A stretch of 64,000 nucleotides of DNA. Origin: Fimicolochytrium jonesii. Its lineage: Eukaryota. Shown here in pieces: positions 2,196 through 22,085 of this stretch (the stretch's first letter is position 1; each line of letters begins with the position of its first letter). Position numbers and translations under genes: made by a program. The notes under the pieces are model-generated. The model did not search any database, was not told the DNA's origin, and worked only from the letters and a program-made list of their open reading frames with translations. Where the stretch lies: the NCBI RefSeq assembly GCF_025526975.1, contig NW_026515682.1, positions 372,001-436,000 of the forward strand. The letters are read 5' to 3'.

Positions 2196-2855
2196 GTGCA
2201 AGAGATTCCGCCTTTGAAATCGTCGCAAGTAATCGCAATGGTCGGCACTCTGAATTTGGACTGGAATACATTCTACGTGCGAAAGGAGAAGGAGTGGACC
2301 GAGGTGCCCAGGGCGACTGCAGACGAAGTGGCCGCTCGAGGGCCATACGACATTGTCACAGCATGTAATCGCCGGGCTTACTTTCGACGGTACGGAAGCA
2401 CCACACCGCGGCAACCTTTGTGGAAGACCGCCGACAGGGGATTCAAGTTCACTTGCGTCAATTGCAAGATGGAAGTGGATATGGTGAGCAGCGTCAACTC
2501 TTGTCAAGGTCACTTTGACAGATCCGTTGGGGGCCTCCCGTGTGTCGTCTACTACGAGTTTGAGAACGAGGACGGTGAAACACGACCACTGCTCACTTGT
2601 CGGCAGAGCCGGCTGATACGATGGGTGCACACTCGCCCAGCGGGGGACATAGGGGACATCGATGTCCCATGGGACGAATACCTCATACAGCGGGAGGCGG
2701 AGGGTGCGGGCGAGGACGGCGACGATGAGGGAGAGGAGGAAGAACGGGATGCGGTTCCCGCCCCCCTAAGCACGCCCTCAAGTGCGAGTGAGACCGCTGG
2801 ACAAACGCCAATTTTGGGCTCGCCAAACGAAGCCTCCGCTGAAGGCTGCAAGTAA
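2196..2855 (+). CDS. Orphan ORF (about 205-219 aa) with CxxC motif and acidic tail
   Basis: Open frame with protein-like composition (FTCVNCKME; GEDGDDEGEEEERD), first ATG at 2238; no family recognised. Confidence 0.3.
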   Translation: MQEIPPLKSSQVIAMVGTLNLDWNTFYVRKEKEWTEVPRATADEVAARGPYDIVTACNRRAYFRRYGSTTPRQPLWKTADRGFKFTCVNCKMEVDMVSSVNSCQGHFDRSVGGLPCVVYYEFENEDGETRPLLTCRQSRLIRWVHTRPAGDIGDIDVPWDEYLIQREAEGAGEDGDDEGEEEERDAVPAPLSTPSSASETAGQTPILGSPNEASAEGCK

Positions 2856-3252
2856 GTGAGAGAACGAGAGAAACCTGTAGGAGGATACCGACCCTTCCAT
2901 TTTGTCGATGAACGCAGTCTGCGCTTTGTCGATGCTTGAGTTTCGGGGAGCTGGGACAGGCGTGAGGTTTGACATGCACTGCAGGCATGAGGCGTGAGGT
3001 CTGCAGCACATTGGCACAATCGGCCACAAAGGCAAGGGCATCATTCCAGGATGTACCGGAGAGACACAATGTAGCATGTATGTAGCATCCGGACATCTTA
3101 CATATGTGCGGTAATTCCTCGTTCCCACCTCAACTTCGTTGCGGTCGTAGCTAAGTACGCTTGCAATGCTCAATGTCTCGTTTCCTACCATCCCTGCCAG
3201 TTGCGAAGCTCGACAAAAGTCCCGTGGAAGTGGATGCAGCGCCGGAAATCCC

Positions 3253-3359
3253 TTCCAGGGGTTAGGGTTAGGGTTAGGGTTAGGATAACCCTACACTCTT
3301 TCAAAGTGACCTGCCGTTCCAGGGGTTAGGGTTAGGGTTAGGGTTAGGGTAACCCTACA
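3253..3359 (+). repeat. Two 43-bp direct copies of TTCCAGGGG(TTAGGG)4-TAACCCTACA separated by a 21-bp spacer
   Basis: Copy 1 at 3253-3295 and copy 2 at 3317-3359 differ by one base (TTAGGA vs TTAGGG). Confidence 0.95.
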
Positions 3360-3707
3360 AGCCGTCAATAGATCGGTCAACACTCCCTGCATCAACCCCC
3401 TAGCCTTTCACATCCACTCTCGGCATAAGCAAAAACCCGACATACGTTCTTCAACCGAACGGGGTAAGGAGTCCCGAGTAAGAACTGAATGAAAACATGA
3501 GTGTAGAGTTGGCAGAAAGCAGCTTGTTGTTGTTGGATGTCGCGTTGAGCAGCGACGGACGGGCGATGAGGTCCAGGATGAGGTCACACGTCTCCACTCC
3601 ACTGACTCCAGGCGAAACTTGGCAACGAGAGACAAAAACACTGCACACTCCGTCCTCCCGAGTTCTGCGCATACATACAGACAGTACCCTCAGACACTCT
3701 TCTCAGC

Positions 3708-4670
3708 ATGCCGCTCATCTACGCCTTAACCTCCCGGGGCTCCATCATCCTCGCAGAGCATGCTGCGACGACAGGCAACTTCCAGCAGGTCACGCAGCAT
3801 ATCTTGGAGAGGTTGCCCGAGCAGGAGGAGGGAAAGGACGGGGAGACGAGGATGACGTTTGTTTATGATCGGTAAGTTTCGACAAGGAGAGCGGAGGGTT
3901 GGGTACTTTTGACGAGCGAGGGACAGCACTTTGTGGTCCGCATTCGTCCATCCCACCCAGTATCAATATCACACCCACTTGTCGCTGACTCCTACCTCTC
4001 TCCCACCCGCACACAGCTACCTCTTCCACCACTTGACCTCGCATGGCATCACCTTTCTCTGCCTCGCGGACGACGGGTTCGGCCGCCGCATCCCATTCGC
4101 ATTCCTCGAAGACCTCAAGCAGCGGTTCGAGAAGACCTACGGCTTTGAACGGCCAAAGCATGCGATTGCGTATGGGCTGAACGAGTTTTCCAGGGTTATC
4201 CAGGCTCAGATGGTGTGTATCACTACTTCATCAATCTAGTAATTTGAAAGAGCGCTGTATCTCACCCAACCTGTGATTCATAGGAACACTTCAACAACAC
4301 GCCTCAAACCGACCGCTTCCACAACGTACAATCCGAGATCGACGCCGTGCGCGACGTCATGGTCACCAACATCGAAAAAGTGCTCGAGCGCGGGGACAGA
4401 ATTGAGATCCTAGTCGACAAAACCGACACGTTGAACGCGACATCGTTTGCGTTCAAGAAGCGGTCGACGGCGTTGAGGAGGCGGGAGTGGTGGAAGAATA
4501 CAAAGTTGATGGTGCTTATGGGTGTTGGGGTGCTGCTTGTGATTTGGTTTGTGGTCACGGCGAGGTGTGGGTTTACGTTTAGTGATTGCAAGGTGAGGTT
4601 GTTGTGGTTTTGTTCTTTGCTGATTTGTGTGCAGGTTATTCCAACGTCGTCAATCCAATTCCAGGCCTGA
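3708..4670 (+). CDS. VAMP7: Longin R-SNARE VAMP7-like (vesicle-associated membrane protein 7)
   Basis: Longin start MPLIYALTSRGSIILAEH; RRIPFAFLEDLKQRF; synaptobrevin motif VMVTNIEKVLERGDRIEILVDKTDTL...WWKN plus TM helix; short GT-AG introns. Confidence 0.92.
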
Positions 4671-5362
4671 GGAATCCTACATCAATCCCGCTCGACATCC
4701 ACCATCGCCCGATTTTTGTAATCCCATGCGCATCAGCATCCCCGCGCCCATCCCATTGTACATCGCCTCCCTAAGTTTTGAATCTTCGCCAAAACCCCCT
4801 TGCACGATATGTTTCCCTCCCCCGACCGCCATGTTGTTCCACGTTTCCCCCCATATTCCGCCAATGTCCCCCCCCACACATTCCGCCACACATGTACATA
4901 ACAGTTTCGCAGTTTCGACAAATGAATGAGAATTTCGTGTCTATCCAAGTCGTTCGGCGGTATTCGGTCCGATCTCTTTTTTCCTTGTTCTTTTTGTGTG
5001 TGTCATGCACAGAATACAAGTCGTGATAGCCGACATCAAAAAATCTGCAAACGAGTAGACCGCATTCGGGAAACAAAGCGATAAGCCGTGAAGTGTTGGA
5101 TCAGGGCAGTAAAGACTCACTTGCATGGCACCATATCGGTAATACCACCGGTTATTAAGCCCCGCACCAAGCGATTCCAGTGAAAGTCTATATGCATGCC
5201 CGCCCATGGGTGTTTACCTACGTACAATGGCCCCGCACAGCAGAGCAGATACGCAGTACGGCATTCGGATACAGCAAGGTAATGGATGTCCCACTCACTA
5301 GGGATGCAGCAACCGCGTGCGATTTCGAAGTGTCGGCAACCGTTTTTTGGAACGGAGTAGTA

Positions 5363-5394
5363 TAGGGTCCCTAACCTTAACCCTAACCCTAACC
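5363..5394 (-). repeat. Short interstitial telomeric tract (CCCTAA)4, one unit CCTTAA, preceded by an inverted TAGGGT
   Basis: tagggt-ccctaa-ccttaa-ccctaa-ccctaa-cc. Confidence 0.9.
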
Positions 5395-5565
5395 TTTGTA
5401 GGCAAAATTGACGGCGGATTGACAGCATTCGACAAACCAACACGCATGAGGGCGACAACGTTCTCGCTCAAAATGGGATATGGGAGTCGGCAAAATGGAA
5501 GAAGGTTATTGCAATGAATGTGGCGCTGGGTGGGCCGTCTTCCGGCGAGAGCTGATGAGAGGTAT

Positions 5566-6211
5566 GCATAAATAAACATCCCCCCAATGCAGGCACCCCT
5601 CACCTCCAATAGGACACGGAAAGGAAAACGACGGAGGAAGATTACTCCCGCAAGACGAGCTGTGGACATGAAAACCGGATTGACAGCATCGGGGTTGTGG
5701 GATGCATAAACATCCCCAATGGGGGCACTCCTCACCTCCAATAGGACACGGAAAGGGAAACGACGCAGGAAGATTCCACCCGCAAGACGAACTGGAAATG
5801 AAAACCAGATTGACAGCATCGGGGATGTGGGATGCATAAACATCCCCAATGGGGGCACTCCTCACCTCCAATAGGACACGGAGAGGAAAACGACGCAGGA
5901 AGGTTACGCCGGGACGAACTGGACATGAAAACTAGATTGACAGCATCGGGGATGTGGGATGCATAAACATCCTCAATGGGGACTCCTCACCTCCAATAGG
6001 ACACGGAGAGGAAAACGACGCAGGAAGGTTAAGCCGGGACGAACTGGACATGAAAACTAGATTGACAGCATCGGGGATGTGGGATGCATAAACATCCCCA
6101 ATGGGGGCCCTCCGCATCTCCAACCTGACACGGAGAGGAAAACGACGCAGGAAGGTTAAGCCGGGACGAACTGGACATGAAAACCAGATTGACAGCATCA
6201 GGGATGTGGGA
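5566..6211. repeat. Tandem array of 5 units of about 125-132 bp, with a diverged sixth unit near 6300-6420
   Basis: GCATAAACATCC..CTCCAATAGGACACGG..ACGACGCAGGAAG..ATTGACAGCATCGGGGATGTGGGAT recurs; anchor CTCCAA at 5604, 5736, 5866, 5991, 6118 and 6333. Confidence 0.95.
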
Positions 6212-6553
6212 GCAGCTATAGCAGTTGACAACTGTGACGGGCAATGACAGCCTCCCGAGCGGGACAGACTACGTATATGGCTCTATCGTGGAGAGGTTAC
6301 TTATAAACATAGCCATTGCTCACACTTCCCAGCTCCAATAGGACACCGTGGACGAGGAAAAGGAAAGAAACGACACCGGAATATGCAGGGCTACTGAAAT
6401 CGTCACTGGATATGGACGATAGCATAGCATTCGACACCAACAAGATATGCTGGATATGCTGGACCACCATCCAGTCGCCATACCAACGTCTCCATATCCA
6501 CCCACAGGCGATAGGACCCGTCGTCGTCGTCACATATCAACACGCTATGGACC

Positions 6554-6614
6554 TAGCCCATAGCCCATAGCCCATAGCCCATAGCCCATAGCTCACACCC
6601 ATACCCATACCCAT
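6554..6614. repeat. (TAGCCCA)5 and (CCCATA)n microsatellites, telomere-like variants
   Basis: Read directly from the sequence. Confidence 0.9.
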
Positions 6615-6637
6615 CCGCTGCAACAAAAACCTCAACA

Positions 6638-6935
6638 CCTCCTCGCTCGTCAGTCATCCTCGGACTTCGTCGCCATTCCACGCTGACAACCCCTCCTCGC
6701 TCGTCAGTCATCCTCGCCTTCGTCGCCATTCTACCGCATCACCCTGACAACCCCTCGCTCGGCGTCATCCTCGGACTTCCGTCGGCACTCGGACTTCACC
6801 CCTGTCGTCGTCAGCAGGCCCAGGCCATCCCGGGCTCGGATTTCGTCGCCAGTCGGACTTCGTCGGCATTCCACGTGCGCTTACGACCACCTATGCGTCG
6901 TCGGCACCCCTGTCGTCGTCAGCAGGCCCAGGTCG
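6638..6935. repeat. Degenerate short repeats (CCTCGCTCGTCAGTCATCCTCG, CGGACTTCGTCG, CACCCCTGTCGTCGTCAGCAGGCCCAGG x2)
   Basis: Several imperfect direct copies are visible. Confidence 0.8.
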
Positions 6936-7254
6936 GTCATCGTCCTTCTCCCGCCGCGACAAAAACGCGTCACATAATCACCTCGCGTCGCATCCCGCAA
7001 TCCCTTCAGACACCGACAACGCGTTGCCCGCTTAGCATCGTCAGCCAAAGAACACCGGGAACTTCCAGGCCTCCCCTTTCTCATGAATCATCGGCGCATT
7101 TGAAATGCGAGCACGCAATTCCCCTGGATTGCGGGCGCAGTCCTATACTGTGCCACCTTTTGGAAATGAGGTTCTTCCTCGGGATCTCGTTTCCAGAGGG
7201 AGCAGCAGCGAGCAGAGAGAGAGCCGTTGCGGGCGTCCTAGTGAGCCCGAAGTC

Positions 7255-7261
7255 TATAAAA
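7255..7261 (+). promoter_or_regulatory. Candidate TATA box (TATAAAA) upstream of the repeat-rich unit
   Basis: CTATAAAAGG followed by a pyrimidine-rich stretch and TCAGT at about 7301. Confidence 0.45.
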
Positions 7262-7324
7262 GGAGGACCTCGGTTCGCCCTCCCCTCCACTTTTTCCTCA
7301 TCAGTTCCGCACACAACAATCTCC

Positions 7325-7530
7325 TCTACTACTACTACCTCTTCCCTACTACTACCTCTTCTCGACTACTACCTCTTCACTACTACTACCTCTTCTCGAC
7401 TACTACCTCTTCTCGACTACTACCTCTTCGCTACTACTACCTCTTCTCGACTACTACCTCTTCTCGACTACTACCTCTTCGCTACTACTACCTCTTCTCG
7501 ACTACTACCTCTTCTCGACTACTACCTATC
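7325..7530. repeat. CTA-rich minisatellite (CTACTACCTCTTCTCGA / CTACTACCTCTTCG units)
   Basis: Read directly; it produces spurious YYY/TTT-rich ORFs. Confidence 0.95.
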
Positions 7531-7571
7531 GGTCGCTCACGTACTACTACTCTGGCCTACTGCCGACTACA

Positions 7572-8110
7572 ACACAAGATCAACGTCCGCTACCGCTTCG
7601 CCAGCACCCAAGATCAAGATCCGCTATACCGCTTCGCCAGCACCCAAGATCAACGTCCGCTATACCGCTCCGCACCCAAGATCAAGGTCCGCTACCCGCT
7701 TCACCAGCACCCAAGATCAAGGTCCGCTGTACCGCTTCGCCAGCACCCAAGATCAAGGTCCACTACCCGCTTCGCCAGCACACAAGATCAAGGTTCGTCA
7801 TCGTCCGCAATGACCTTAAACTACCACCCTTCATCGACAGTACCGCTTCGCCAGCCACTACCACTACCACCCTTCATCGACGGTACCGCTTCATCAGCAC
7901 ACAAGATCAAGGTCCGTCATCGTCCGCAATGACCTTAACCTACCACCCTTCATCGACGGTACCGCTTCGCCAGCCACTATCACTACCACCCTTCATCGAC
8001 GGTACCGCTTCATCAGCACACAAGATCAAAATCCGTCATCGTCCGCAATGACCTTAAACTACCACCATCGGCGCTCTTCTTCGGTATTATCGGGTCCGAA
8101 ATGACGCTAA
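7572..8110. repeat. Minisatellite TACCGCTTCGCCAGCACCCAAGATCAAGGTCCG grading into an approximately 120-bp higher-order unit (CGTCCGCAATGACCTTAA..CTACCACC at about 7802, 7921 and 8040)
   Basis: Read directly from the sequence. Confidence 0.9.
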
Positions 8111-8618
8111 ACTACGATCATCGGCGCTTCTTCTTCGGTCGGCACTATCGGGTCCGGGAAACTACCATCGGCACTTCTTCTTCGGTCGGCACTCCTTTTC
8201 GGCACTCCTTCGGCACCGTGCTGGGGGAACCACGTGAAACGCCCCGACGTTCCATTCTTTTCTTTTCTTTCCTTTTCTTTTCGTTTCTTCTCGTGCTAAC
8301 TTTCCATTCTTTTCTTTCCTTTCTTTTCGTGCTGGGAGCATGCGTACGTTAAAGGGCCGGTGCTAGGCAACCACAGAAAACGCTTCGTGCTGGTAGGCAT
8401 GCGTACGTTAAAGGGCCGGTGCTGGGCTACCACAGAAAACGCTCCGTGATGGAAGACACACGTTAAATAGCCCGCGTAATGGGCGTTATGAACCTGGAAT
8501 GTGATTGAAATCAACGCAAAGCGACCGTGACACTCGGTGGCTACCTTCGGGTAGACAGGGCAGGGGCTGGTGATGAGAGTGGTGAGGTGAGTTACGTGCT
8601 GTGAAATACAAGAATCAC

Positions 8619-8966
8619 GTATATCGACTGACGATCTGGTTATTAGTTGTCTTTTCTTTACCGTCGGCGCTCTTCTTCGGCACTCTTCTTCGGTCCACTG
8701 GTTAGTTATCTCATCTTAGGAAATCGTGACTGATTCTTGTATATCGACTGACGATCTGGTTATTAGTTGTCTTTTCTTTACCGTCGGCGCTCTTCTTCGG
8801 CACTCTTCTTCGGTCCACTGGCTAGTTATCTCATCTTATAAAATCGTGACTGATTCTTGTATATCGACTGAGGATCTGGTTATTAGTTGTCTTTTCTTTA
8901 CCGTCGGCGCTCTTCTTCGGCACTCTTCTTCGGTCCACTGGTTAGTTATCTCACCTTATGAAATCG
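8619..8966 (+). repeat. Three near-identical tandem units with exact 120-bp period
   Basis: GTATATCGACTGACGATCTGGTTATTAGTTGTCTTTTC... starts at 8619, 8739 and 8859. Confidence 0.97.
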
Positions 8967-8974
8967 CAATCCTC

Positions 8975-9356
8975 TTCGGTCGGGTCCGAAATGACGTTAA
9001 ACTACCATCGGCACTCCTTCGGCACTCCTTCGGCGCTCCTTCGGCACTCCTTCGGCACTTCTTCGGTTCGGTCGGGTCCGAAATGACGTTAAACTACCAT
9101 CGGCACTCCTCGGCACTCCTTCGGTTCGGTCGGGTCCGAAATGACGTTAAACTACCATCGGCACTCCTTCGGTTCGGTCGGGTCCGAAATGACGTTAAAC
9201 TACCATCGGCACGTCCGAAATGACGTTAAACTACGATCGGCACGTGGAAGTGGAAGAAACACGTTAACCAGCCCGTGGACGTGGACGACACGTTAACCAG
9301 CCCGTGGAAGTGGAAAAACACGTTAACCAGCCCGTGATCAGGAAAACCACGTTAAA
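8975..9356. repeat. About 45-bp units (TCGGGTCCGAAATGACGTTAAACTACCATCGGCAC) followed by about 30-bp units (CGTGGAAGTGGAA..ACACGTTAACCAGCC)
   Basis: Read directly from the sequence. Confidence 0.93.
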
Positions 9357-9481
9357 CGACCCGCGTAATGGGCGTTATGAACCTGGAATGTGATGAAATC
9401 AACGCAAAGCGACCGTGACACTCGGTGGCCATGGAAGGATCGCTGGGCGACTCCATGGACAGGGAATGTGGACAGGGCGAC

Positions 9482-9870
9482 TCTTGAGGTATGTATTTGA
9501 TCATCATCGTCGCCGTCGTGATCTTCACTGCTCTTCAACATTCATTGATATCGTCTTCTGCTTCTCTATTAGATGAGAGTGATGACGAGGATCTTGAGGT
9601 ATGTATTTGATCATCATCGTCGCCGTTGCGGATCATCACTCGTCTTCTGCTTCTCCATTAGATGAGAGTGATGACGAGGATCTTGAGGTATGTATTTGAT
9701 CGTCATCGTCGCCGTCGCACTGCTCTTCAACATTCATTGATATCGTCTTCTGCTTCTCTATTAGATGAGAGTGATGACGAGGATCTTGAGGTATGTTTTT
9801 GATCATCATCGTCGCCGTCGCACTGCTCTTCACTGCTCTTCAACATTCATTGATATCGTCTTCTGCTTCT
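9482..9870 (+). repeat. Four tandem units of 89-110 bp (TCTTGAGGTATGT...TTAGATGAGAGTGATGACGAGGA)
   Basis: TCTTGAGGTATGT at 9482, 9592, 9681 and 9784. Confidence 0.95.
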
Positions 9871-10438
9871 CGTCTTCAGGAGCTAGAGGACGCTAGAGGA
9901 CGCCGAAATCGACATCGAGAACTTCATCGAGGAAGCCGGCGAGAACGACATCGACGAGGCCGCGGAGCAAGACGTCAAGGAGCTAAGGTAAATATCATCA
10001 TTGTCTGCTTTGATCACTGTTCGAAATCCGCTAACACTCGTCGTCGTCCATAGAAGCCACCGGACACGCAGGAACTACCATCGGCACGTCAACGACCATC
10101 GGCACGTTAAACGACTGTCGGCACATTGAACGACCATCGGCACTCTTCTTCGGCACTCTTTTTCGTTTCGGCACCACCCTTCTTCGCTCGTGCTGGGCAC
10201 CCACGTTAAAAGGCCCAAGCGAAGCGACCGTTCTTCTCGGTGGCTCCCTCGGGAGACAATCGTGCTGGGAGCATGCGTACGTTAAAGGGCCGGTGCTGGG
10301 CAACCACATTAAACGCTCTGGAATGTGAGAATCAACGCGAAGCGACCGTTATACTCGGTGGCTCCCTCGGGAGACAAGTAATGGGACGGGAATGACTCGT
10401 ATATATCTCTCTTGTACTATATTATAATACTATCTTTC

Positions 10439-10444
10439 AATAAA
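10439..10444 (+). terminator. Candidate polyadenylation signal AATAAA in an AT-rich patch ending the repeat block
   Basis: TATATATCTC...TATTATAATACTATCTTTCAATAAAAA. Confidence 0.35.
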
Positions 10445-10973
10445 AACTACTTTTGAACTATACTACTTGCTCTGCTTCGTGCGCTCTTCGAAAAATGGCT
10501 TGCAAACTATTCTACTTCTCCCTCCTGTTGTGGGTGCAGGTTAGGGTGTGTGCGTCACGCGCTTCAGAGTGGAAAGGACGACGGCTTCGCACGGCTGTAT
10601 GTACCCCCATTTTTCTACAAGTTGCCTTCATCGGCGACGCCTCAGGCAGAGGTACAATGATGTGGAGTACTGTACAGTATATGTATGTGACTGCGTTTGT
10701 CTCGCCGTGGCCAGAGGTGCGGTACCGGATGCTTGGAATGCTTGGTGTCGGGCACTTTCTTATTCATTGTCCTTGGTAGTCGCTGGTCGCGTCGCGGGGG
10801 GGTGGGGGGGGGGGGGGGGCCGGCTTGGAAGTCAAGTGACGCATACTGTACGTATAAATAGCTGCGCGTCGTCGGGCAGAACACCTTTTTCCTCCAGCAT
10901 CTCAGCATTTCAAGACCAAGATTCCGTGGCCCATTCCCAGATTCCGTTGCCCATTCCCAATTACACTAGAAGA

Positions 10974-11151
10974 AGTTATGACCACTGCCGGCACGGCCAG
11001 GCGTGATTGTTAACTATCTTCTGGTGCGTCTGGTGAATGGTGAATGGTGAATGGTTAATGGTGAAGCTACCTCGGCTCTCGCTCAGACTCTCGCTCCACA
11101 TCCGATGAACAGTTATGACCACTGCCGGCACGGCCAGGCGTGATTGTTAAC
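10974..11151. repeat. 41-bp direct repeat AGTTATGACCACTGCCGGCACGGCCAGGCGTGATTGTTAAC (10974-11014 and 11111-11151)
   Basis: Two identical copies flank a (GGTGAAT)n microsatellite. Confidence 0.95.
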
Positions 11152-11799
11152 CCTACTTCTGTGTTGGAGGTGCTGTGTTCTGCACTCCGGCCCGTCGGCC
11201 ACGGTCGCTTCTGCGTCCGCCACCGCTACGACCACTGATACGGTTACTTCGACTGAGCCCAGGTCCGCGGTGACTGAGCCTACCAAAAACAAGGTCATTC
11301 GGGTCAGATCGGTTGCCTCTGCTACCTCGGTCGAACTTCCTCCGGTTACCTCTGTGCCTGAACAGGCGGTCACCTCTATTTCTATTCCACTGCCTCTTTT
11401 TCCCACGTCGGTTCCGCCGCCTCCCCCGGTTTTCCCCTGCCCTATCCGCCGCTCTTCCCGAACCCGTACGTCGCCGGCATCCCCACGCTTGGCGCTTCCG
11501 TCGCGCCCTTCTCCCTGCAGCACCCAGGGAACCACCCGACCGCCCCGGCGTGCAGACCTACGGGCAAACTCACTGGATATCGGCGCCGAGGAGCCCCTGT
11601 ATCAAGCGATAGTTTCCTTTGGTATGCTTTCTGATAAATGTTACGGTCGCCTGCATTTTGTTTTTGCTAACGCACGCACGCAACTTGGAACCTCCCGTAC
11701 ATTCACCAGAATAACGTCCATCGCCTACATAACAACCCATGGAGACCGAAGGTAGGTTCTCGAGCAGGGAGGGAGCAGCGGGGAGATGAGGAAATGGGG

Positions 11800-12020
11800 T
11801 ACCCTGCCCAGATGGTTTCGCGCATATGGCGTATCCAGCCACTGTCAGCAGCCCCCGGGTTGGCGCATATGACGTATCCACTCAGGGGAGAAAGGAGAAG
11901 AGAGAGAGAGAGGGAGAGAGTGAGCGAGAGCGCGAGAGAGAGCGGACTATACCCTACCAGATGGTTTCGCGCATATGGCGTATGCACCTGGGGGATGAGG
12001 GAGAGGGAGAGAGAGAGCAG
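11800..12020. repeat. Duplicated TACCCT..CCAGATGGTTTCGCGCATATGGCGTAT block with GA microsatellites
   Basis: Copies at about 11800 and 11950, each followed by (GA)n-rich runs. Confidence 0.85.
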
Positions 12021-12148
12021 AGGCGCGCCCTTTTGGATTCCGCTGTCTGTCGTCGCACAAATGGTGGTAGAAGGCAAATCTCATTGGCGTCGTGGGCTAA
12101 CCCTGTCGGTGAATATCCTTGGGACATGTTCCACCCAATACTCCCGAG

Positions 12149-12302
12149 ACCCGAGTTAGGGTTGGGGTTAGGGTTAGGTTAGGGTTAGGGTTAGGGTTAG
12201 GGTTAGGGTTAGGGTTTACCCGAGTTAGGGTTGGGGTTAGGTTCGACAGAGTCGCGGTCAAATTGAGGCGCCATTAGGGTTAGGGTAACATTAGGGTTAG
12301 GG
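12149..12302 (+). repeat. Interstitial telomeric cluster: about 10 TTAGGG units (12156-12214) plus shorter tracts
   Basis: ACCCGAGTTAGGGTTGGGGTTAGG occurs twice (about 12149 and 12218); CATTAGGGTTAGGGTA occurs twice (12272-12304). Confidence 0.97.
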
Positions 12303-13449
12303 TACTCTTACGCTCAAGCTCGGCCTTACAGCCTTCACGCTCGGCCTTACAGCTTCACGCTCTCAGCGCCGTGGTTTGCCATTTGGTACGGCTGGGTAGG
12401 CACTACTACCCCAGCATTCATTTCCCACAAATACTCATCATCCAAAAAACGAATCATGGCTCGAGTCCTGCAACATAGGGCACTCAACTCTCCTTCTTCC
12501 CCTTATGCAGATACCGATAGACGTACAGTACATGTGCAGTATTCGTGTTCGAACCGGAGATGAGATATGGTGGGTGATCAGAGGAGGCTTTGCGACAAAG
12601 CGACAAACCGGAGATGGAACGGAAACAGGATGGTTGGACGGAAAGGGGAGGAGAGGAGTGATGGTGGAGGAGAGGAGAGGTAGCTGGCAGGTCGTGCCGG
12701 GACTCCAGGACTCCCGCACTTGCAGAACATTCCCACTTGCACATCCTCACGCACATCCTCACGCTGGTCTCTTGTTTTACAGCCTAAGCGACGAAACGAA
12801 TCTGAAGGGGAGGGGAAACGGACAAAGCGGGCGACAGCGGTACACGGATTCAGTCGTTTTAATACACTTCTGAAGCAAGATGCAGTCGGAATCATCTCAC
12901 GCTTCAATCTCAACGTCGAATCCGCGGAGGAATATGCCACAACAATTGCGCACCCGACACAAACCGTATCCGGTGGATAAACGCCCGACGAAAACATCTA
13001 TATGACCAGCTCGGAGCGGGAGAGAAGGGGCCGATCGAAGGGATTCCGTTGTCCCCAACTCCAACTCCAACACCAGCCCATGCCCTCGACGCATTACTGA
13101 GCGCCTGATCTATGTATTATAGACGACATTTTTGCTCCGGTTCTCCCAAATGACCCTCTCGCTATGCGGCCCGGGGCGCGGATCCACCAGTTTGTTGACA
13201 AGGCTGCATGGGCACAGAACCGGGAAGGAGATCACCAGCCCACGCCAACACCTGGCCCAACCCACACTACCACACCCAGCGCCATCTCAAACCCCGGCAT
13301 CGGCGGAGTTGACAACGGCGGCGGTGGAGTTGAAATCATGGCAGACAGCCGCGGCGGCGTTGAAATCATGGCAGACAGCGGCGGCGGTGGTGGAGTTCAA
13401 ATCGTGGCAGGCAGGGACGGCGGCGGTGGAGTTGAAATCGTGGCAGGCA

Positions 13450-14060
13450 GCGATTTCCAAAGTGTCAAAATGGCACGGAGATTCAATGTACCTATTCCGT
13501 TTGTTCCGGTAAGAAAAGTTACTTAAGTTACTAAAGTTACCGTACTTAACTAAACCAACTTTCCTTTTTTTTTTGTTTTATGTTCAGCGGTCTATCGATG
13601 TTGCAGAGTACAACGTACTGCTATTCCCAACAAACCCAGATAATCTGCACTGGGTCCTGTTTGCAATACTCGTCGCCCAAGTCCGCAAAACCCCTGGGCC
13701 CCCCTGGTTCGTCATTAACCAGACACGAAAACGTATCCCTCGTTTTATTTGACTCAAAGCCTCGCCCGAACGACCACGACTACGTTGATAAGATGGCCAA
13801 TATAGGCTCCCTCTTGTGGGATTGGTGCATTACGGCCACTGAAGTCCCGCTCAATCACACACCGACGCCGACACCGACGGTTGACGCCCTCTTCACGCCT
13901 CGACAGCGCGACGACCATAACTGTGGGACATTTGTGTGCATGATGGCTGATGCCATTGCACGTGGTGCCGTGGGTGAGGTTACCGAATCATGGGTCAATA
14001 CGCAGACCGCCGTCAATGCCCGCCATACCATCATCGCGCTGAGCATCGTGTTGGCCATGT
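13450..14060 (+). pseudogene. Frameshifted Ulp1/SENP-type (C48) cysteine protease remnant, probably transposon-borne
   Basis: After an intron (GTAAGA 13509..TTCAG 13587), frame 1 reads IDVAEYNVLLFPTNPDNLHWVLFAILV (His at 13648). Frame 2 continues VLFDSKP...TPRQRDDHNCGTFVCMMADAI (Cys at 13922). The H-D-C triad and oxyanion Q are split by a frameshift. Confidence 0.8.
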
Positions 14061-14259
14061 TTCTTCACGATGGTGATGCTCATCAGTATACGGATGTGAC
14101 GAAGTGCTAGAGATGGAAGATGCAGATGCCGGGATGGAAGGTGCAGAGATGTCGGCGTAGGAGGAGGTGCAGAAGGGGGTGCAGAAGGGTGTTGTGCCGA
14201 AAGATGCGAGCTCCTAGTTGTGATAGGGGTAGAGTATAGTATATTATACGTATAGTACG

Positions 14260-14552
14260 CGCCTTCAGCTGAGTCGTGCTTCAAGTGGTGCTTCAATGGT
14301 CACTCAATCATGGATAGACGACTTCTTGAACACGGCGCCCTCCAAGGACGGCTGCTTTCAGGGAGTACTCTTCCTTCTGGGCCTGTCGCAACTGCTCGGG
14401 TGCATATTCAAGTGGGAGAAATGCTCACTCACTCCATCCCAACACGTACAGCACATCGGCTGGAATTCATCGTGAGGGGCATTTCTATACGTTTTTCGAT
14501 GGACGGCCACTCTATATACGGTCAGACCATCGTCGGCTACTTCCGATCTCGT
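14260..14552 (+). mobile_element. DIRS/Ngaro-like (tyrosine-recombinase retrotransposon) reverse transcriptase and RNase H remnant
   Basis: 14296-14475 translates MVTQSWIDDFLNTAPSKDGCFQGVLFLLGLSQLLGCIFKWEKCSLTPSQHVQHIGW (xxDD motif plus K..L.PSQ...IG typical of DIRS RT). It is followed by HFYTFFDGRPLYIRSD / QTIVGYFR in adjacent frames (RNase H SDN.T.V.Y-like). The ORF is too short to appear in the ORF track. Confidence 0.72.
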
Positions 14553-14784
14553 GCACAATACAGATGACGATATGATGACCTGAGGGACGATTCTGACATG
14601 GGATGTCTTGTTGACGGAGTTGGATACATTCATCCCACGCGGGGCGAGGACGCTGTATAGTAGGAATGGTGTGGGTTTGATGGGGGCGTGGGTAGATATT
14701 GTATAGCAAGGCCGGGGGGATAGGCGGAAACATCAATTGAACCATGAGATGGAAAAAGGAGAACGTCGGTGAACGACCAGCTGG

Positions 14785-15015
14785 GAAACTCCCCTCGTAA
14801 AGCCCTGAGTAAAGCCCAGTTCGCAGCGCAAGAACGCGACCTCTTCGCTCTGGACCTCCTTCTCGCCAACCGCCATTGCGACATCGACCTGCTCACATTT
14901 CCACACCACACACTTACAACACCTCCGGCAGCTACAGCAGCCTTCCCTAGTGGCTGGACTTCGGCTCCCCACTCTTCTTTTCGCTTTTGAGTTACTGTGG
15001 ACCTGGGAATCACCA
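14785..15015 (+). mobile_element. Heavily eroded Ty3/gypsy-like RNase H remnant
   Basis: RKALSKAQFAAQERDLFAL...LLANRHCDI, then WLDF and PGN in shifted frames, echo the LS.AQ.NY...ERELLA / RW..FL / PG..N motifs. Confidence 0.45.
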
Positions 15016-16139
15016 TGCAAAGGTGTACAATGGTCATGGCGGTCCCGTGCGCATTCCAACACTCCATCTTCGGCATGAGCTCACTCGTTGGGGAGGCAGA
15101 TGGTGCCCCACTGCGAGTCGCCCTCGGTGCTCCTACACGCCTTGCAAGGCACGACGTTTCTGGATGCTGCAGAGGTTCCCCTTGCTTGTCTCGGAACCCC
15201 ACCTACCAGTTCGTCGCTACCTGCACGTCGTCCGAAGCCGTCGGCTTTAGCTGCGCGTCGTCGGCAATGCGCAGAAGTGTTCTCCCACTGTCCCATTCGG
15301 CTCACTGCAACAAGGATCTACGGGTAAGCTTTATCACTTGAACTGGGTAACAGGGTGCCATCGCCTCATTGTTTCCTACCTCATTGTTCCTACTACGTAG
15401 CCACAAACAAGCGGAAACGAGACAACAAAGAGAACACGGCAGTCGATGGAGGTTGGTGTGTCCATTCCATTGAATTATCCGGCTGTAGGGCCGTAGGCTG
15501 GTGTGGTGTGGTGTGGTAAATATCGTACAGTGGGTCAATGGCTCACCCAACGCATCAACCAGAGACAACACCATTCCGCCGGAGTACGCTGGAGAAACGA
15601 TGGCTCAACAACCTCCAACTGAAAGCACTCTGCAAAACCGAGCAAAACCGCACCTGTCACGCCTCCGTCGCTCTGCATTCAGCGTTCCGCTCTCGACTTC
15701 ACGATCGCTTGAGGCTGATTGTTTTGGGCCGTCCTCGCGATCGTTTGCCATCCACCACAACCGCGATCGCTTGAGGCTGTTTGTTTGGGCCGTCCTCGCG
15801 ATCGTGTGCATCTCATTGAATTTATGCGGCGATCTTTTCCGGCACATCCTTTATCTAATCCGCTCCCTCGGCCGATCCCTCTGCATCGTCGAAACCTGCA
15901 CGTCGTCAGAAGAATTATGACCACGCGTGATTGTCATCTCTTCTGGTAAAGGGAGAATGGAACTCGACTCTTGCTCAGAAACATACTCCGCACCGAGCAA
16001 AACCGCACCTGTCACGCTAAGAGCTGGAACCATGGACCCGCATCATCCGAACCATGCTTCCCATTGGCCACGCTTCCCATTGGCCACCGCTGCCCCAGTC
16101 TCGAGCGTCGTTGCCCACGCTTCCCATTGGCCCAGCGCA

Positions 16140-16600
16140 TGTAACCCTAACTGTAAGTCATTTTGCGTGGAAGGCTGTTATATCGCGTGGAAGGCTATTG
16201 ACTCGCACATTTACAGGGTAACCCTAACCCTCAGTTACGGTACGGGTATTAGGGGAAGGCTGTAACCCTAACTGGAAGTTATTTCGCGCGGGAGGCTGTT
16301 ATATCGCGTGGAAGGCTATTGACTCGCATATTTACAGGGTAACCCTAACCCTCAGTTACGGTACGGGTATTAGGGGAAGGCTGTAACCCTAACTGGAAGT
16401 TATTTCGCGCGGGAGGCTGTTATATCGCGTGGAAGGCTATTGACTAGCACATTTACAGGGTAACCCTAACCCTCAGTTATGGTACGGGTATTAGGGGAAG
16501 GCTGTACCCCTAACCGCTGTGTTGTACACAACAAACCCTAACCCTCAGTTACGGTACGGGTATTCCGCGAAGGCTGTAACCCTAACTCGAAGTTATTTTG
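16140..16600. repeat. Tandem array of 121-bp units (3 full plus partial copies) containing telomere-like TAACCCTAAC and AGGGTAACCCTAACCCT
   Basis: TGTAACCCTAACT at 16140, 16261 and 16382, variant at 16503, partial copy at 16575. Confidence 0.97.
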
Positions 16601-17054
16601 CGCGGAAGGCTGCGCACGGAAGGCTATTTATTATAGTCGATGCAGGGCCGTTATTCGAGCGCGCCCAACCCAACCCAACCCTGCACTGATCTTGGCTGTG
16701 CTGGAGCGAGAAACTGACCTGCCGAGGCGGCAACGCCGTTGAGCTCCAGTAGGATGTATACGATAAAATCTCCGAGAGTTTGAAAGAGCGCCGGTTCAAG
16801 TTCCGGATGTCAGGCTCATATTGGGATGCAAGGAAGGCCACCGTTCTTGTCGGCAAGGCCATGCAGATCTGCGGCATGCTCACCGATGTCGACGAAGGCT
16901 ACGGGTGAAAGCTACTGTATGAAGCTCAAAAAAATCCATCTATCTACAAGAAAACGCACACTGAGGGGTATCAAAATCTCTTCCCATCCACCACCTACAT
17001 AGAACCCAAAATATCAAAAGCAGCCCTCCAACCGCCCCCAACCCCCCTCCCCAT

Positions 17055-20000
17055 CTACCCAAACAGCGTCTTCAACTCCTCAATCCTCCCCCTCTTCTCC
17101 TCCTCCTTCCTCTTCGCCGCCGCCCCCACCGTCCCACCACTCCCTGCACTCGCACCACCAACTTCACCCTCCCCAATAGCCCACTTAGTCAGCACCGTCT
17201 TGCGCTCTTGGATCGTAAGCATCTTCTCCTCGACGGTGTCACGCATGACGAACCGTTTGACAGTGACGGGGCGGGTTTGGCCGATGCGGTGGACGCGGTC
17301 GATAGTTTGGGATTCTACGGGGGCCTATGGTGCGTTGCAAAGCGATTGCGAAACGGGAAACCTGTGTGTTAGATAGCAGCTAACGGAGAGAGATACTTGC
17401 TGTCCAATGGAGGAGATGCGAGGGGGGTTGAAACAATACTTACATTCCACCACGGCTCCATGATAACCACAAAACTCGCCCTCACAAGGTTCAACCCCAC
17501 CCCCGCGCTCCTCATGCTCGCCAACAACACCCTACATTCCCCCGCATCCCCTTCATCACTCGCAAACCTCCGCAACGTCGCCTCCCGTTCCCTCTGACTC
17601 ATCGTCCCATCCAGTCTACAAAACCCAAACCCATGTTCCTGTAACACAATCTCGCAGAGGTTGAGCATGGATGTGAACTGTGAGAAGACGACTGTTTTTA
17701 CGTCGGGTTGCGTGGTGCGGAGGTGGGTGAGGTGGTGGATTAGGGTGAGAAGTTTTGTGGAGGCGTGGAAGTGGCGGCGGAGGGTTATTGTGTGGGTTGG
17801 TAGAGGTGGTGGTGGGGATGTGATGATGGTGTCCGAGTCGGTTTTGCCGTTTTCCTTGTTATCATCTACCAAAGTCGTCGACGATTGCTTCCCATCCGTT
17901 TGAGTGTCCCCCGCGCTGACAGCAGTTGCAGCGGGCGCACTCGGCGCCCTAACAATATCCAACAAGTCCTCTTCCCTGAACTCCTTCCTGCAAATCGGAC
18001 ACTCGCCCTTCTCGCCCATCTGCTCGCGTTTCTGGAGGTATCCGACGATGCACTCGAAGCAGCTCATGTGCAGGCAGGGGAAGAGGGTTGGCTGGACCAT
18101 CAGGTCGAAGCAGATCGGGCACGAGGAGTCGTCGTCTTCTTGGGAGGGGCTGGTGCCGTTAAGGGGGGATTTGCCGGCTTGTGCAAGGCGTTGGAAGACG
18201 GTGTCGACGTAGGTATCGCGGTCGGATGTACCGGTGGTGCTGCTGTTCCCATCCAACCCATTTTGGAACCGTTTGATCAACGCATCGATGTCCATATCCG
18301 ACCCATCTGCACTACTCGTCGACGCCGACGCAGCAGCGTTCCCTTTCCCCAACGCCAACTCCGGATGCAAGCAACACTGCCTCAGCCTCGTCAGCATCTG
18401 AAACACATGCGCCCAATGGCTGAGAACGCTGCCTGCCGCGCAGAACGCCGAGAACTGCGTTTTAGATTTCGTAAACAGTGCCGTGTAGATATCGCGCTCC
18501 TCTTTTGTGAAATCGAGGTATTCGGTCTCTACCGTTTTGGGCGGGAGTTCCACGATCGGTCGGCCTTCGGGTCCCACTCGCGTTGTTTTCTGGCGACGGA
18601 GGACGAGCGGTTCCAAAACCGATTGGACTACGTTCAAAGCTTTTGGGTCCTTATTGGCAAAGGGTACGGTGATGAACTGTCGCCAGAAGGAGTAGTTCCC
18701 CCACGGCTCGATGCGGAGAAAATGCACCAGGGAGAATAAGTCCTCGAGCCGGTTCTGGATGGGCGTGCCGGTAACGCACCACCGACGTCGCGCGTCGATC
18801 TTGTGGCAGGATTTGGCGGTGGCGGTTTGCTGGTTTTTGATCCAGTGCGCTTCGTCCAGCACGACTCGGAACCATTGCACGCCGAATATCAGCGAGGCGC
18901 GCTTGTTGGTTTTCACTGTTGCTTGCCATTCGCTCGCGACGACTCCGTAGGTTGTGATGACGACATCGGGTGCGTCTTTAGATGTCAGATCCGAGATTTT
19001 CAATGACCGTTCTGTACCGTAGAAAACGGCGTGAGATAATGTCCCCGGCCTGAAGCGTTCCGTGACCTCATCGCGCCACTGGGACAGAAGGGACAGCGGG
19101 CACACGACCAGCGTTGCCCGGCTTGACGGAAGTACAGAGTCCGTCGAGTTCCCCTTGGCAGCATACCGCGCAAACGGTTGGAACTGGTTCGTCCAACTCG
19201 ACTGCCCCATCTCTTCCTGCGTCGGTCGATTTGTGTGTATGAGAGCAAGGGTCTCGAGCGTTTTGCCGAGTCCCATCTCGTCGGCAAGGATTCCTGCCCG
19301 AGTGCGGTCGGCGGCGCTTGGGAAGCGTGTTTGCATCTCGCCGGTGTATGGGTTTAAGTAGATCTTCTGTGGATGAGCCTCGCACTGGTTTCCCGGACTT
19401 GGAAGGGCGTACTCTTCCCACAGGGGATGTATTGAATGCGAGTCCGAATCTACTTGAAGGTTTTCTTTCGCCGCCATCCAGGATAGGGCCTGTACCATTG
19501 ATTGAGAGAGCAATAATGTCAGTCTTGCACCAGGGATGTCATCACGTTCAGACAAACATCAAACATACCTGCTTTTGATACCCCCTCAAGTCAATAACCA
19601 ACCCCTCCTTCGGCTCCATCTCCTGCACATCCTCAAAACCTCTCGCCTTCTCATACAAAACCTCCACCTGATCCTCCTCCAGCTCCTTCTCATCCTCCAC
19701 CGCGTCCTCACCCGGCACCGCGCCACCACTCGACGCAGCATCCACCGCAGCATCCTCCTTCAACCCAGCCTCAGCGGGGTCAAACGGCCGCAACCCAAGC
19801 ATCTTGAATAACGTCAACAGCGCAATCTTGCGATCCTTGATCGTCTGGTCCTGGGTATCCTCATCGTCGGCCGACGCCACGGTCATAAACGCCTTCTTAG
19901 TGAAGAAGATGCGGAGCTGCAGGATAATATCGCACAGCAGTGTGAGTGAGGGTGGGGCTGAGACGACCGTGCCGCGGATGACGATGACGTCCATCTCGAC

Positions 20001-20513
20001 CAGCTTGCCGAGCACCTTCGCGTCGTCTTTGGACATCTTGGCGACCTCTTTGCCGCCGGCCCGGATGCGCGTGATGGGCCCTCTGGGTGTTTTGGACGCG
20101 CGTGGGTATCTTTTGGACGTCGGTTGGGCCGAGTAGACGGTCTTATGGTCGATCGTCTCGATTTCGTCTCCGTCTCGTAGCTGGTTGGGCCCCCGGATGG
20201 TCGCAAGGGCTACCAGTATCACGTCGCCTGCATACTTCAACTCCCCGTCCGGATGCGGCGACCCGGCCCCACCGGCTGCTTTCACCCGCTTCACATCCCT
20301 CGTCCCCATCGCCGCATCCTCCTCCGCCTTCCGCTTCACCCCGGCGTCGGCCGCCTGTATCGCAAGTCGTTGGTATTTGCCTGGGTTCTCGAAATATAAA
20401 TGACATGCTCGTGATAGGTCGCCTTTGGACTCGGCGAGCAGGACGCCGAGTGACATGGAGGGGACTTCGTCGCCGAGGATGCCGCGGAGGGAGGCGAAAT
20501 CTGGTTGTGTCAT
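17055..20513 (-). CDS. RAD5: DNA repair protein Rad5 (HIRAN-like region, SNF2 helicase, RING finger)
   Basis: [76 protein letters not shown]; last exon [30 protein letters not shown]; introns near 19500-19568 and 17325-17440. Confidence 0.95.
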
Positions 20514-21559
20514 TGTTTGCGGTTGGTTGCTAAGTTGCAGTATCGTTTCAAGCAATGGCCGTGGGAACTTGGTGGACTGGAGGCGACGAGGGTGGAGTGG
20601 AGAAGTCTCAAAGCTCCAGCCAGACCTGTGGGTATTCCCCGGGAGCGCAGCTTTCCTATCTAGTACTATCTAGGAGGTGCTATTCCAGCACTTTGCCCTG
20701 CGATAACCTCTACCATTTGCAAATGGGGATAGTTTGAGGTCTACGCTAAGCACAGCATGAATTTGCAACAAGTCCGAAAGCGCCTCGTTTGACAAATTGC
20801 GTCCGGAAAGGGAAGCCAGACAGAGGCGACTGCCAAACGCGTCACTCCAATCCTACGAGTTGGGAAGGAAGCGACAACCACATAGCCCGGCAACATGAGA
20901 GTAAGCTTCTGACGGTCGAGCTTCTGCGCACGTTGAGCGTGAGGAGCGGGGAACGAGGCAGGCAAGGCATTGGGCTTTCGTCCACAGAGCACATGCCCTC
21001 AAGTTGTTAAGCAAGAAGACAATTTTCCAAAGTAGTTGTAATAGACACAGATATTATGTAGATATCTACATATTAGACAAAGCATTTGATACGTACAATA
21101 CATGCAATTGATACCGCACTAAGATTGCCACGCCGATATTGAACGGCATCCTACTCCGCCATCCTACTCTGCCTTCGTGCCTTCATCGCATCCTCCAGCT
21201 TCATCGCATCAATAAACTTCCTCTCCTTATCCTCAGATTTCATCTCCTCGAATTTACCGCCCATTACCGGGGATCTTTACTGGGGAATACACTACATATG
21301 CCGGAAACTACACATCGGCTTGACATTGGTTGGACGGGATGGGGCGAGGGGAGGGGGTTGTGCATGCCATAGCACAGTGTGTGGAGGCTGAGGGTGACAC
21401 CCGACAAGCCGGCGGCGGCGCAATCAGATCCTCCCCACTGTCGTTGTAGGCGGCGGCGGTCCAGTCGGCGGTGGAACCTAAAGCAGCAAAAGAGAGCACA
21501 ATCAACAAATGATGTATTTTAGAACTACAATAAAACCCGAAGAATGCTCGCCCGGGTTT

Positions 21560-21665
21560 CCTCGAGTTCCAGTCTCATATCCTCTAAACTTGTATGCTTT
21601 GTATGAAAGATCTGCTTTCCACCGGTCCAGTTGTCTGCAGCGTGTGTGAATCCGCACAGAAAGGT
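21560..21665 (-). mobile_element. Ty1/copia integrase C-terminal (SH3-like) remnant
   Basis: YLSVRIH...WKADLSYKAYKFRGYETGTRG resembles the copia Y.HIP...K.LD.KA.K..FIGY..G.KG pattern. Confidence 0.5.
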
Positions 21666-21714
21666 ACCGCTGGTTGTTGCTCTTACTTGTTACAAGGCTG
21701 GCCACGGCGGCGTC

Positions 21715-21867
21715 TGTCATGGGATTAGGGTTAGGGATTAGGGTTATCAACCCTAATCCCCAACCTCACAACCCTAACCCAGTGATAACCCTAATCCCCA
21801 ACCCTAACCCCAACCTCACAACCCTAACCCGGTGATAACCCTAATCCCCAACCCTAATCCCATGACA
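21715..21867. repeat. 153-bp telomeric palindrome: 35-bp inverted repeats built from TTAGGG variants around CCCTAA-variant direct repeats
   Basis: Left arm TGTCATGGGATTAGGGTTAGGGATTAGGGTTATCA (21715-21749) and right arm TGATAACCCTAATCCCCAACCCTAATCCCATGACA (21833-21867) differ by one mismatch. Confidence 0.95.
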
Positions 21868-21964
21868 AAGTCCGCCTGTGAAGGCACCTCTCCACATTGC
21901 GCTCTGGACGAGGAACGTAGTCCTCAAGAGTCTATGGACGAGGAGGAGGTTGCGAGGAGGTTGC

Positions 21965-22085
21965 TTAGTATTGCGGAACGTTTCAATCGAACTGTCATGG
22001 ATCAAGTTCGTGCAATAATGTGCATGAGTAACATTCCTGAGAATCTCTGGAATGAAATAGCTGTCTTGGTATGTGCATCAATGAA
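21965..22085 (+). mobile_element. Ty1/copia integrase core remnant
   Basis: SIAERFNRTVMDQVRAIMCMSNIPENLWNEIA matches the copia G.AER.NRT....R.ML..S.LP..LW.EA motif. Confidence 0.85.

Follow-up and report, generated by a model that had tools for sequence, protein, structure and literature searches.

Telomere-like tracts in and around a repeat island of Fimicolochytrium jonesii and their possible origin in decayed DNA transposons

Five TTAGGG-type tracts (sites S1 to S5) occur in the first 22 kb of the 64,000-nucleotide stretch of Fimicolochytrium jonesii DNA analyzed here (the window), and they raise the question of whether chromosome ends were once joined or healed at these places or whether telomere-like motifs arrived there within mobile elements. 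Chytrids have been reported to contain few DNA transposons (PMC5751038). A literature search, which covered few subscription papers or Repbase-type entries, found nothing on TTAGGG-bearing elements with terminal inverted repeats (TIRs) or on chytrid interstitial telomeric tracts.

Number and setting of the tracts

The existence of the five tracts was confirmed, and their repeats greatly exceed what chance would give. At positions 1-22,000 the hexamers TTAGGG and CCCTAA occur 51 times, compared with 11.0 ± 3.2 in 100 third-order Markov simulations, and 14 double hexamers are present, none having appeared in any of the 100 simulations. All five tracts, as well as the junction strings quoted for them in an earlier note on this DNA, were recovered at the coordinates given there. 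The absence of tracts from the remainder of the window, also described in that note, was confirmed, positions 22,001-64,000 containing seven hexamers (5.4 expected) and no double hexamer. The two parts of the window have nearly the same amount of ORF-free DNA (13,185 and 13,689 bases), so that this clustering does not merely reflect non-coding space; it is modest, with P = 0.028 for five independent sites and 0.12 for three. The longest perfect hexamer runs are three and four units at S1, two at S2, six at S3 and two at S5, and S4 is without two adjacent perfect hexamers. The mis-joining of telomeric reads into repeats by the assembly is scarcely credible as their source, as the tracts are short, diverged and interleaved with unique sequence, and recur in units of 64 and 121 bp that differ at single points, a pattern not generated by mis-joins.

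The tracts are arranged around a repeat island (5400..16700, unstranded), in which 3,298 of 11,300 bases belong to tandem arrays and no conserved host gene was found. To its left, a VAMP7-type SNARE gene (Longin + Synaptobrevin; 3708..4670, + strand) lies between S1 and S2, and to its right a RAD5-type SNF2/RING helicase gene (17055..20513, - strand) lies between S4 and S5. To the left of S1 is an orphan gene (2238..2855, + strand) that is 100% identical to F. jonesii EV422DRAFT_92613 and has a weak resemblance to a BED finger (Atlas). The suggestion that every tract borders junk DNA applies to S2 and S4, at the left and right edges of the island, the latter ∼430 bp from the RAD5 stop; S3 is internal to the island, and S1 and S5 occupy gene spacers of 850 bp and 1.8 kb, respectively, S1 being 350 bp upstream of the VAMP7 start.

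Whatever their origin, the tracts might have been selected as putative binding sites for Tbf1/TRF-type Myb proteins, forming nucleosome-free boundaries or promoter elements that would shield VAMP7 and RAD5 from the heterochromatin of the island. The positions of S2 and S4 at both island edges and the bracketing of VAMP7 by S1 and S2 in inverted orientation would suit such a role, and Tbf1 sites in yeast are described as anti-silencing and insulator elements (PMC6410037). However, S3 lies in the middle of the island, the ends of elements fall at island borders by construction, and the relevant part of PMC7952879 reports Tay1 proper from Ascomycota and Basidiomycota only, leaving chytrids unmentioned. 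A boundary function is regarded as quite unlikely.

Structure of the sites and their junctions

Each tract had been described as switching from the G strand to the C strand. When full TTAGGG units within 60 nt to the left of the junction and full CCCTAA units within 60 nt to its right were counted, the results were 4/0 at S1, 0/3 at S2, 7/0 at S3, 0/2 at S4 and 3/4 at S5, so that a head-to-head arrangement exists at one of the five sites only. S1 (3250..3359, + strand) consists of two copies, S1a and S1b, 64 bp apart, each with approximately four GGGTTA repeats and then a short tail, ACCCTAC; it is of the G strand only, with no full CCCTAA after the turn. S2 (5361..5395, - strand) is a single inverted copy of the same motif, with four units and one mismatch, such that the same repeat number and the same tail are found at S1a, S1b and, inverted, S2. 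S3 (12149..12302, + strand) is a G-strand tract of 10.5 units with 24-nt and 17-nt direct duplications and without a C-strand part; its apparent switch is the ACCC that opens the second copy of the 24-nt direct repeat (12149-12172 = 12218-12241), after which the G-strand repeats resume. S4 (16140..16628, - strand) is a 121-bp satellite of 3.1 copies plus a partial copy, each unit of which has two AACCCTAA motifs, one of them inside the palindromic turn. As four different architectures are spread over the five sites, the proposal of one process for all of them was too strong.

The short palindromic turn itself is widespread, being present in at least 114 metagenome loci that form at least 88 unrelated clusters. 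Among the 88 clusters listed, 62 have at least three hexamers near the turn; non-telomeric inverted repeats bracket it in 11 at a level above the 99th percentile of 1,000 controls (five of them above the control maximum), and in the other 77 the turn is not bracketed by TIRs. Three of these loci (L015, L068 and L118) are TIR elements of 216-264 bp, that of L015 interrupting a reverse-transcriptase frame. None of the fetched metagenome loci has non-telomeric flanks in common with the window. Examples of the turn are found in mini-transposons, in intron-like tracts and in small viral genomes, so that a TTAGGG-to-CCCTA turn is insufficient by itself as a mark of chromosome fusion or of telomerase healing.

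The end-to-end fusion or fold-back that the junctions had been taken to signify is not supported at the five sites, given hexamers on one side only at four of the five junctions, tract orientations that run G, C, G, C and a turn that is common in unrelated eukaryotic DNA. S5, where G-strand units are followed by C-strand units, is the one site of the form expected from true fusions or relic subtelomeres; however, the tracts have just 2-10 units, the sites are separated by ordinary housekeeping genes, and the arms of S5 agree in their non-telomeric ends, whereas no such agreement is required between the ends of two different chromosomes. Such an origin is extremely improbable. A subtelomeric position of the region within its contig of 700,724 bp was likewise not supported, the tract orientations alternating.

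Alternatively, the tracts may be short interstitial telomeric sequences (ITS) left by telomerase repair of breaks in fragile, transposon-rich DNA and later duplicated locally, with the inverted arm of S5 as a repair-associated inverted duplication. By the working definition of short ITS given in PMC7215372 (at least four units, with under one mismatch for each unit), S1a, S1b, S2 and S3 qualify, with 4.3, 4.7, 4.3 and 10.5 copies, while S4 fails and S5 is degenerate; S3, with six perfect units, is the purest. The same source describes an ITS insertion in the horse in which inversion and inverted duplication gave head-to-head stretches without fusion. Furthermore, no target-site duplication (TSD) was found around any pair of sites, apart from matches consisting of the repeats themselves. 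However, the units of S4 and S5 are variants, which as such would not be copied from a telomerase template, the tract density within 19 kb is very high, and tails and flanks are common to several sites. A 9-mer is common to the S1b tail and the outer flank of S2 (chance 0.0023, post hoc), an anchored 5' flank to S1a and the S4 unit (p 0.001 per pair, or ∼0.05 when corrected for 55 pairs), and a 14-mer to the outer flank of S2 and the adjoining 127-bp satellite (5572..6211, unstranded, five copies; 4 of 500 controls). The similarities between flanks extend over few letters and were in part selected with hindsight; they nevertheless argue against independent telomerase additions, which would not give common non-telomeric letters. 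Repair by telomerase is considered possible but doubtful.

Local alignment of 14 flank segments with the whole window revealed no dispersed copy above shuffled controls, the matches being the S4 array itself and an adjoining 16-bp tandem. A second tail-like motif, noticed by eye at 2052, was not supported.

Site 5 and the case for decayed transposons

S5 (21703..21880, unstranded) is a mini-element of 171-178 bp with 44-nt TIRs at 21706-21749 and 21833-21876, which are 91% complementary and can be extended to CAC..GTG with one gap. It is composed partly of variant telomere units, contains an internal 50-bp duplication and folds into a hairpin with z = -9.9, none of 200 shuffles folding as well. 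Being short, non-coding and bounded by TIRs, it agrees with the description of a MITE. Its inner boundary reads TGTCA, which fits TGTNR, and the inverted repeat runs 9-12 nt further out. S5 was also considered as a solo LTR and rejected as such, since the inverted repeat greatly exceeds the ends of LTRs in length and the 5-bp flanks match at 3/5 positions only; by eye, neither a primer-binding site nor a polypurine tract was seen in its sequence. This rejection draws on the general features of LTRs. Beside S5 is a probable relic of a Ty1/copia-type integrase (21958..22060, + strand), a weak assignment for which the sole PDB match is the Ty1 integrase 7z0h_W (E 0.081), with no Pfam integrase match.

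Within the island, a broken copy of an Ulp1/C48-protease gene (12619..14110, + strand), with frameshifts and two internal gaps, is located between S3 and S4. It belongs to a dispersed family, with eight annotated relatives, all labelled F. jonesii, on six other contigs as told apart by their lengths; no locus of the family occurred in the metagenome or viral contigs searched, and the relative P0005 had no usable match in Atlas. A longer, transposase-fused form of the relative P0004 was sought with its N-terminal 150 residues and found in 0 of 161 candidates, which is weak evidence. Beyond hexamers, no TIR joins S3 to S4 or S2 to S3, and the Ulp1 copy therefore cannot be tied to S2, S3 or S4. 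A long TIR pair suspected by eye at 10535/16686 was not supported.

The 120-130 bp tandem units, of which the island has several, bring to mind telomere-targeting, endonuclease-deficient Penelope-like elements of the Terminon/Athena type, which are described as having short telomeric stretches and forming tandem arrays (PMC6431247), and the tracts could be remnants or short derivatives of these. However, no reverse transcriptase was found among 133 scanned ORFs (29 + 104), and scans of the region with Rfam, for tRNAs and for hammerheads were all blank, Rfam returning four chance-level matches with no ribozyme and a loose core scan no hammerhead. A Penelope-like origin is very improbable.

On balance, and with some reserve, we incline to the explanation that the five tracts are telomere-like motifs which make up the terminal or subterminal repeats of a number of non-autonomous DNA transposons, now decayed, in and around the repeat island, the 'inverted junction' being a palindrome of 9-13 bp that forms part of the element motif rather than a point of fusion. 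This explanation is suggested by the long TIRs of S5 and its folding beyond that of shuffles; by the non-telomeric letters common to S1a/S1b/S2, to S1a/S4 and to S2 and the 127-bp satellite; by the context of a dispersed Ulp1 family and a weak copia integrase relic; by the frequency of the turn elsewhere, including in TIR elements; and by the density of four qualifying tracts in 9 kb, compared with 229 short ITS given for the entire human genome (PMC7215372). Mobile elements ending in telomere-like sequence had been one of the options of the earlier note, and this option fits best, with S5 and the flank letters common to S1, S2 and perhaps S4 in its favor, if not as a single process. The telomere-like motifs would have travelled with the elements by transposition instead of being added singly by telomerase at each spot, and slippage and local duplication may subsequently have enlarged the tracts and satellites. 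The elements may keep TTAGGG motifs as putative sites for host telomere-repeat Myb proteins, which could open or shield their ends. If copies are found genome-wide, chytrids would gain a telomere-motif element family and, with it, a direct test of such ends as chromatin boundaries.

Several results of the searches made stand against the transposon explanation. No TSD was found at S5 when all boundaries with complementary termini were scanned, except for a 2-bp AT at an inner boundary; no transposase occurs among the 133 ORFs; the 64-kb window contains no second copy of S5, and none of 23 viral-contig matches to an S5 15-mer extends (best 28/44); and neither the window outside the array nor the fetched metagenome loci have a second copy of the S4 unit.

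A bolder reading, which we judge to be unlikely, is that Fimicolochytrium harbors a family of DNA transposons, as yet undescribed, that bear telomere repeats and form a fungal counterpart to the TBEs of ciliates, with an Ulp1 SUMO protease, TTAGGG ends and the palindromic turn. Its ends would recruit the host telomere-repeat Myb protein and so insulate nearby genes, VAMP7 and RAD5 among them, and this design of ends would have arisen repeatedly across eukaryotes.

Comparison with known systems

The marks of Terminons and other endonuclease-deficient Penelope-like elements, namely a hammerhead beside reverse-complement telomeric repeats and a reverse-transcriptase ORF, were not found in the scanned region. 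Ginger1 and Mutator elements are known to carry Ulp1 as a passenger (PMC2836005), and the present locus resembles them in this domain and in the dispersal of the family. The termini of Ginger1 read TGTNR, as does the inner boundary of S5, beyond which its inverted repeat continues. Unlike in those elements as described there, S5 has no CCGG, CCGT or ACGG TSD, neither a Gypsy-type integrase nor a Mutator transposase was found, and RAD5 lies in the 7.6 kb that separate the Ulp1 copy from S5.

Four tracts obey the length and purity rule of mammalian short ITS (PMC7215372, PMC6410037), for which head-to-head stretches are likewise on record without fusion. However, mammalian short ITS are defined in PMC7215372 by insertion relative to an empty site, whereas the tracts here are classed by length and purity; they are also far denser, and several lie inside larger repeat units. 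The TBEs of Oxytricha (Tc1/mariner) are DNA transposons with the host telomere repeat in their TIRs, in which they are similar to S5; their TIRs begin with the repeat and enclose three ORFs, a transposase among them, and the TSD is ANT (PMC4724952), none of which was seen here.

The MITE-like TIR mini-elements L015, L068 and L118 have no sequence homology to S5, which is known from one copy and without a TSD. They are, like S5, short and non-coding, with long TIRs, a telomere-like tract and the same palindromic turn, the difference being that the telomere-like units of S5 are within the TIR itself and not in a central spacer.

The five telomere-type tracts

Five TTAGGG-type tracts, S1 (3250-3359), S2 (5361-5395), S3 (12149-12302), S4 (16140-16628) and S5 (21703-21880), are genuine, the first 22,000 bases containing 51 TTAGGG/CCCTAA hexamers against 11.0 ± 3.2 expected (100 simulations) and 14 double hexamers against 0 in 100 simulations; that they represent an artefact is unlikely. 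The 22-64 kb part is free of such tracts, as had been noted earlier, with background hexamers (seven; 5.4 expected) and no doubles. Because ORF-free DNA is similar in the two parts (13,185 bases in 1-22 kb and 13,689 bases in 22-64 kb), the clustering of the tracts is suggestive (P 0.028 if the five sites are independent, 0.12 if there are three).

The five sites have four different architectures. S1 consists of two copies, S1a and S1b, 64 bp apart, each with about four GGGTTA units and a short tail, and S2 is the inverted S1 motif, identical to S1 in unit number and tail. S3 is a G-strand tract carrying two small direct duplications, S4 a satellite whose 121-bp unit holds two AACCCTAA motifs, and S5 an element of 171-178 bp with 44-nt inverted arms (91%), non-telomeric ends included, an internal 50-bp duplication and a hairpin fold of z = -9.9. 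Short flanks are common to S1, S2 and possibly S4: a 9-mer in the outer flank of S2 recurs in the S1b tail (a post hoc match with a chance of 0.0023), and the S4 unit and S1a have similar 5' flanks (p 0.001 per pair, among 55 pairs). A 14-mer of the S2 outer flank also occurs in the 127-bp satellite next to it (4/500 controls).

The earlier note claimed a switch from G strand to C strand at every site; the tracts it described are real, whereas the switch is present at only one of the five, S5. Full hexamers within 60 nt to the left and right of the supposed junction number 4/0 at S1, 0/3 at S2, 7/0 at S3, 0/2 at S4 and 3/4 at S5. The 'junction' of S1, S2 and S4 is a 9-13 bp palindrome terminating a tract of single orientation, and that of S3 is the first letters of a 24-nt direct duplication.

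The turn in other DNA

A 19-letter pattern of this palindromic turn, taken from S1b and S4, was run on metagenome loci and matched at least 114. Among the matches listed, 88 clusters remained after removal of 26 redundant loci. Because chance would give about 6 matches per 1e11 uniform bases and three or more hexamers lie nearby in 62 of these 88, most of the matches listed are real telomere-like tracts. In the same set, the tract continues on both sides of the turn in 18 clusters and ends in a CTAACCAG-type motif in 25, mostly GC-rich (e.g. L019, L030 and L080), and 11 clusters lie between inverted repeats of non-telomeric sequence that exceed the 99th percentile of controls (in five, also the control maximum). 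To judge from their sequence, the head-to-head tracts with CTAACCAG-type ends look like entire introns. Pervasive interstitial TTAGGG is reported in a coccolithophore (PMC13518057). Three loci (L015, L068 and L118) are elements of 216-264 bp with terminal inverted repeats (TIRs); that of L015, at about 940-1140 with a central head-to-head telomere-like tract, is inserted in a LINE-type reverse-transcriptase frame (RVT_1, E 2.2e-6, downstream part).

No non-telomeric sequence is common to the window and the turn loci among the matches listed, and these loci are therefore analogues, not homologues. Since the turn is so widespread, it is a common motif and not by itself evidence of fusion; with a strand switch at S5 alone, a reading of the tracts as marks of chromosome fusion is unsupported, and such an origin is unlikely.

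Three viral contigs of 2.1-2.2 kb also contain a (TTAGGG)n tract with the turn (L001 1026-1044, L002 1422-1495 and L003 1448-1466). In L002 the tract sits between two parts of a geminivirus-type Rep (Gemini_AL1, E 9.4e-10), at the expected place of an intron, and the flanks of L001 and L003 are similar by eye to those of L002. Six AT-rich metagenome loci (L010, L018, L024, L042, L055 and L109) have CCMGTAAGGTG-like letters after the turn and differing outer flanks, a likeness that suggests that other eukaryotes have a dispersed repeat family.

Genes and transposon-like debris around the tracts

The window is DNA of a chytrid. Within 1-24 kb there are VAMP7 (3708-4670), a CLAMP flagellar gene, RAD5, which runs on the minus strand from 20513 to 17055, and a lipin gene that ends at 22323; a repeat island of 11 kb occupies about 5400-16700. 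In the same part, a single-copy orphan gene (2238-2855), whose ORF (2238-2852) is 100% identical to a Fimicolochytrium jonesii protein and has a CxxC..H motif, could be transposon-derived; in the Atlas its neighbours, at 0.92-0.93, are BED-finger clusters, with a recognition value under the bar. Two G3-run microsatellites of the island, (TAGCCCA)9 at 6554-6614 and (CCCAA)3.6 at 16664-16681, can match, on the minus strand, a G-quadruplex pattern. The stretch 7250-10450, with no Pfam match, has a TATA-like site, then tandem arrays with units of 17, 36, 119, 120, 48 and 103 bp, then an AT-rich end, and looks like one transcription unit, or one element, that has decayed.

A Ulp1/C48 protease gene (12619-14110) is situated between S3 and S4, the domain being under the Pfam cut-off in the window copy (E 0.0055) and above it in the relative P0001. 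The window copy has frameshifts, lacks P0004 residues 233-434 and another block, and is about 80-90% identical over the best segments to its relatives, eight of which are annotated, all labelled F. jonesii and spread over six other contigs, as told apart by their lengths; these genes are a dispersed family in decay. Ginger1 and Mutator elements are reported to carry Ulp1 as a passenger (PMC2836005). Adjoining S5, a short frame at 21958-22060 is a probable Ty1/copia integrase relic, its sole PDB match being Ty1 integrase (7z0h_W, E 0.081) and its motif spacing one that we take to be copia-type. That the tracts are Penelope-like remnants (PMC6431247) is unlikely, as no reverse transcriptase was found among the 133 ORFs scanned and no hammerhead ribozyme in ribozyme scans of the region.

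Origin of the tracts and known elements

Among the origins offered in the earlier note, a mobile element is judged the most likely, from the TIR anatomy of S5, the flanks common to S1, S2 and possibly S4, and the surrounding transposon-like debris. On balance, we favour the view that the motifs stem from decayed non-autonomous DNA transposons, in which they formed the terminal or subterminal repeats; they would have been copied as parts of these elements, and slippage and local duplication would then have amplified them. Against this, no target-site duplication was found for S5 or any pair of sites, no transposase among the 133 ORFs, and no dispersed copies of 14 flank segments in the window by sensitive alignment. 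Because no target-site duplication was found, and with copies counted within the window only, S5 is not filed as a MITE.

The main alternative, insertion of telomeric repeats at breaks by telomerase, is doubtful: four tracts satisfy the rule for short interstitial telomeric sequences, and one such sequence in the horse is reported to have acquired head-to-head stretches via inverted duplication without fusion, but four lie in 9 kb here, against 229 across the entire human genome (PMC7215372). A boundary role, which would fit either origin, seems quite improbable; there is a reported precedent in yeast (PMC6410037). Tay1 proper is, in the text cited, not reported beyond Ascomycota and Basidiomycota (PMC7952879).

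Chytrids are reported to hold few DNA transposons (PMC5751038), and a literature search of limited coverage found no paper on telomere-motif TIR elements in this group. By membership tests, the window elements do not qualify as TBE, Ginger1 or Terminon. In their manner of working, the window tracts resemble telomere-motif TIR elements; the named case of these is the TBEs of Oxytricha (PMC4724952).
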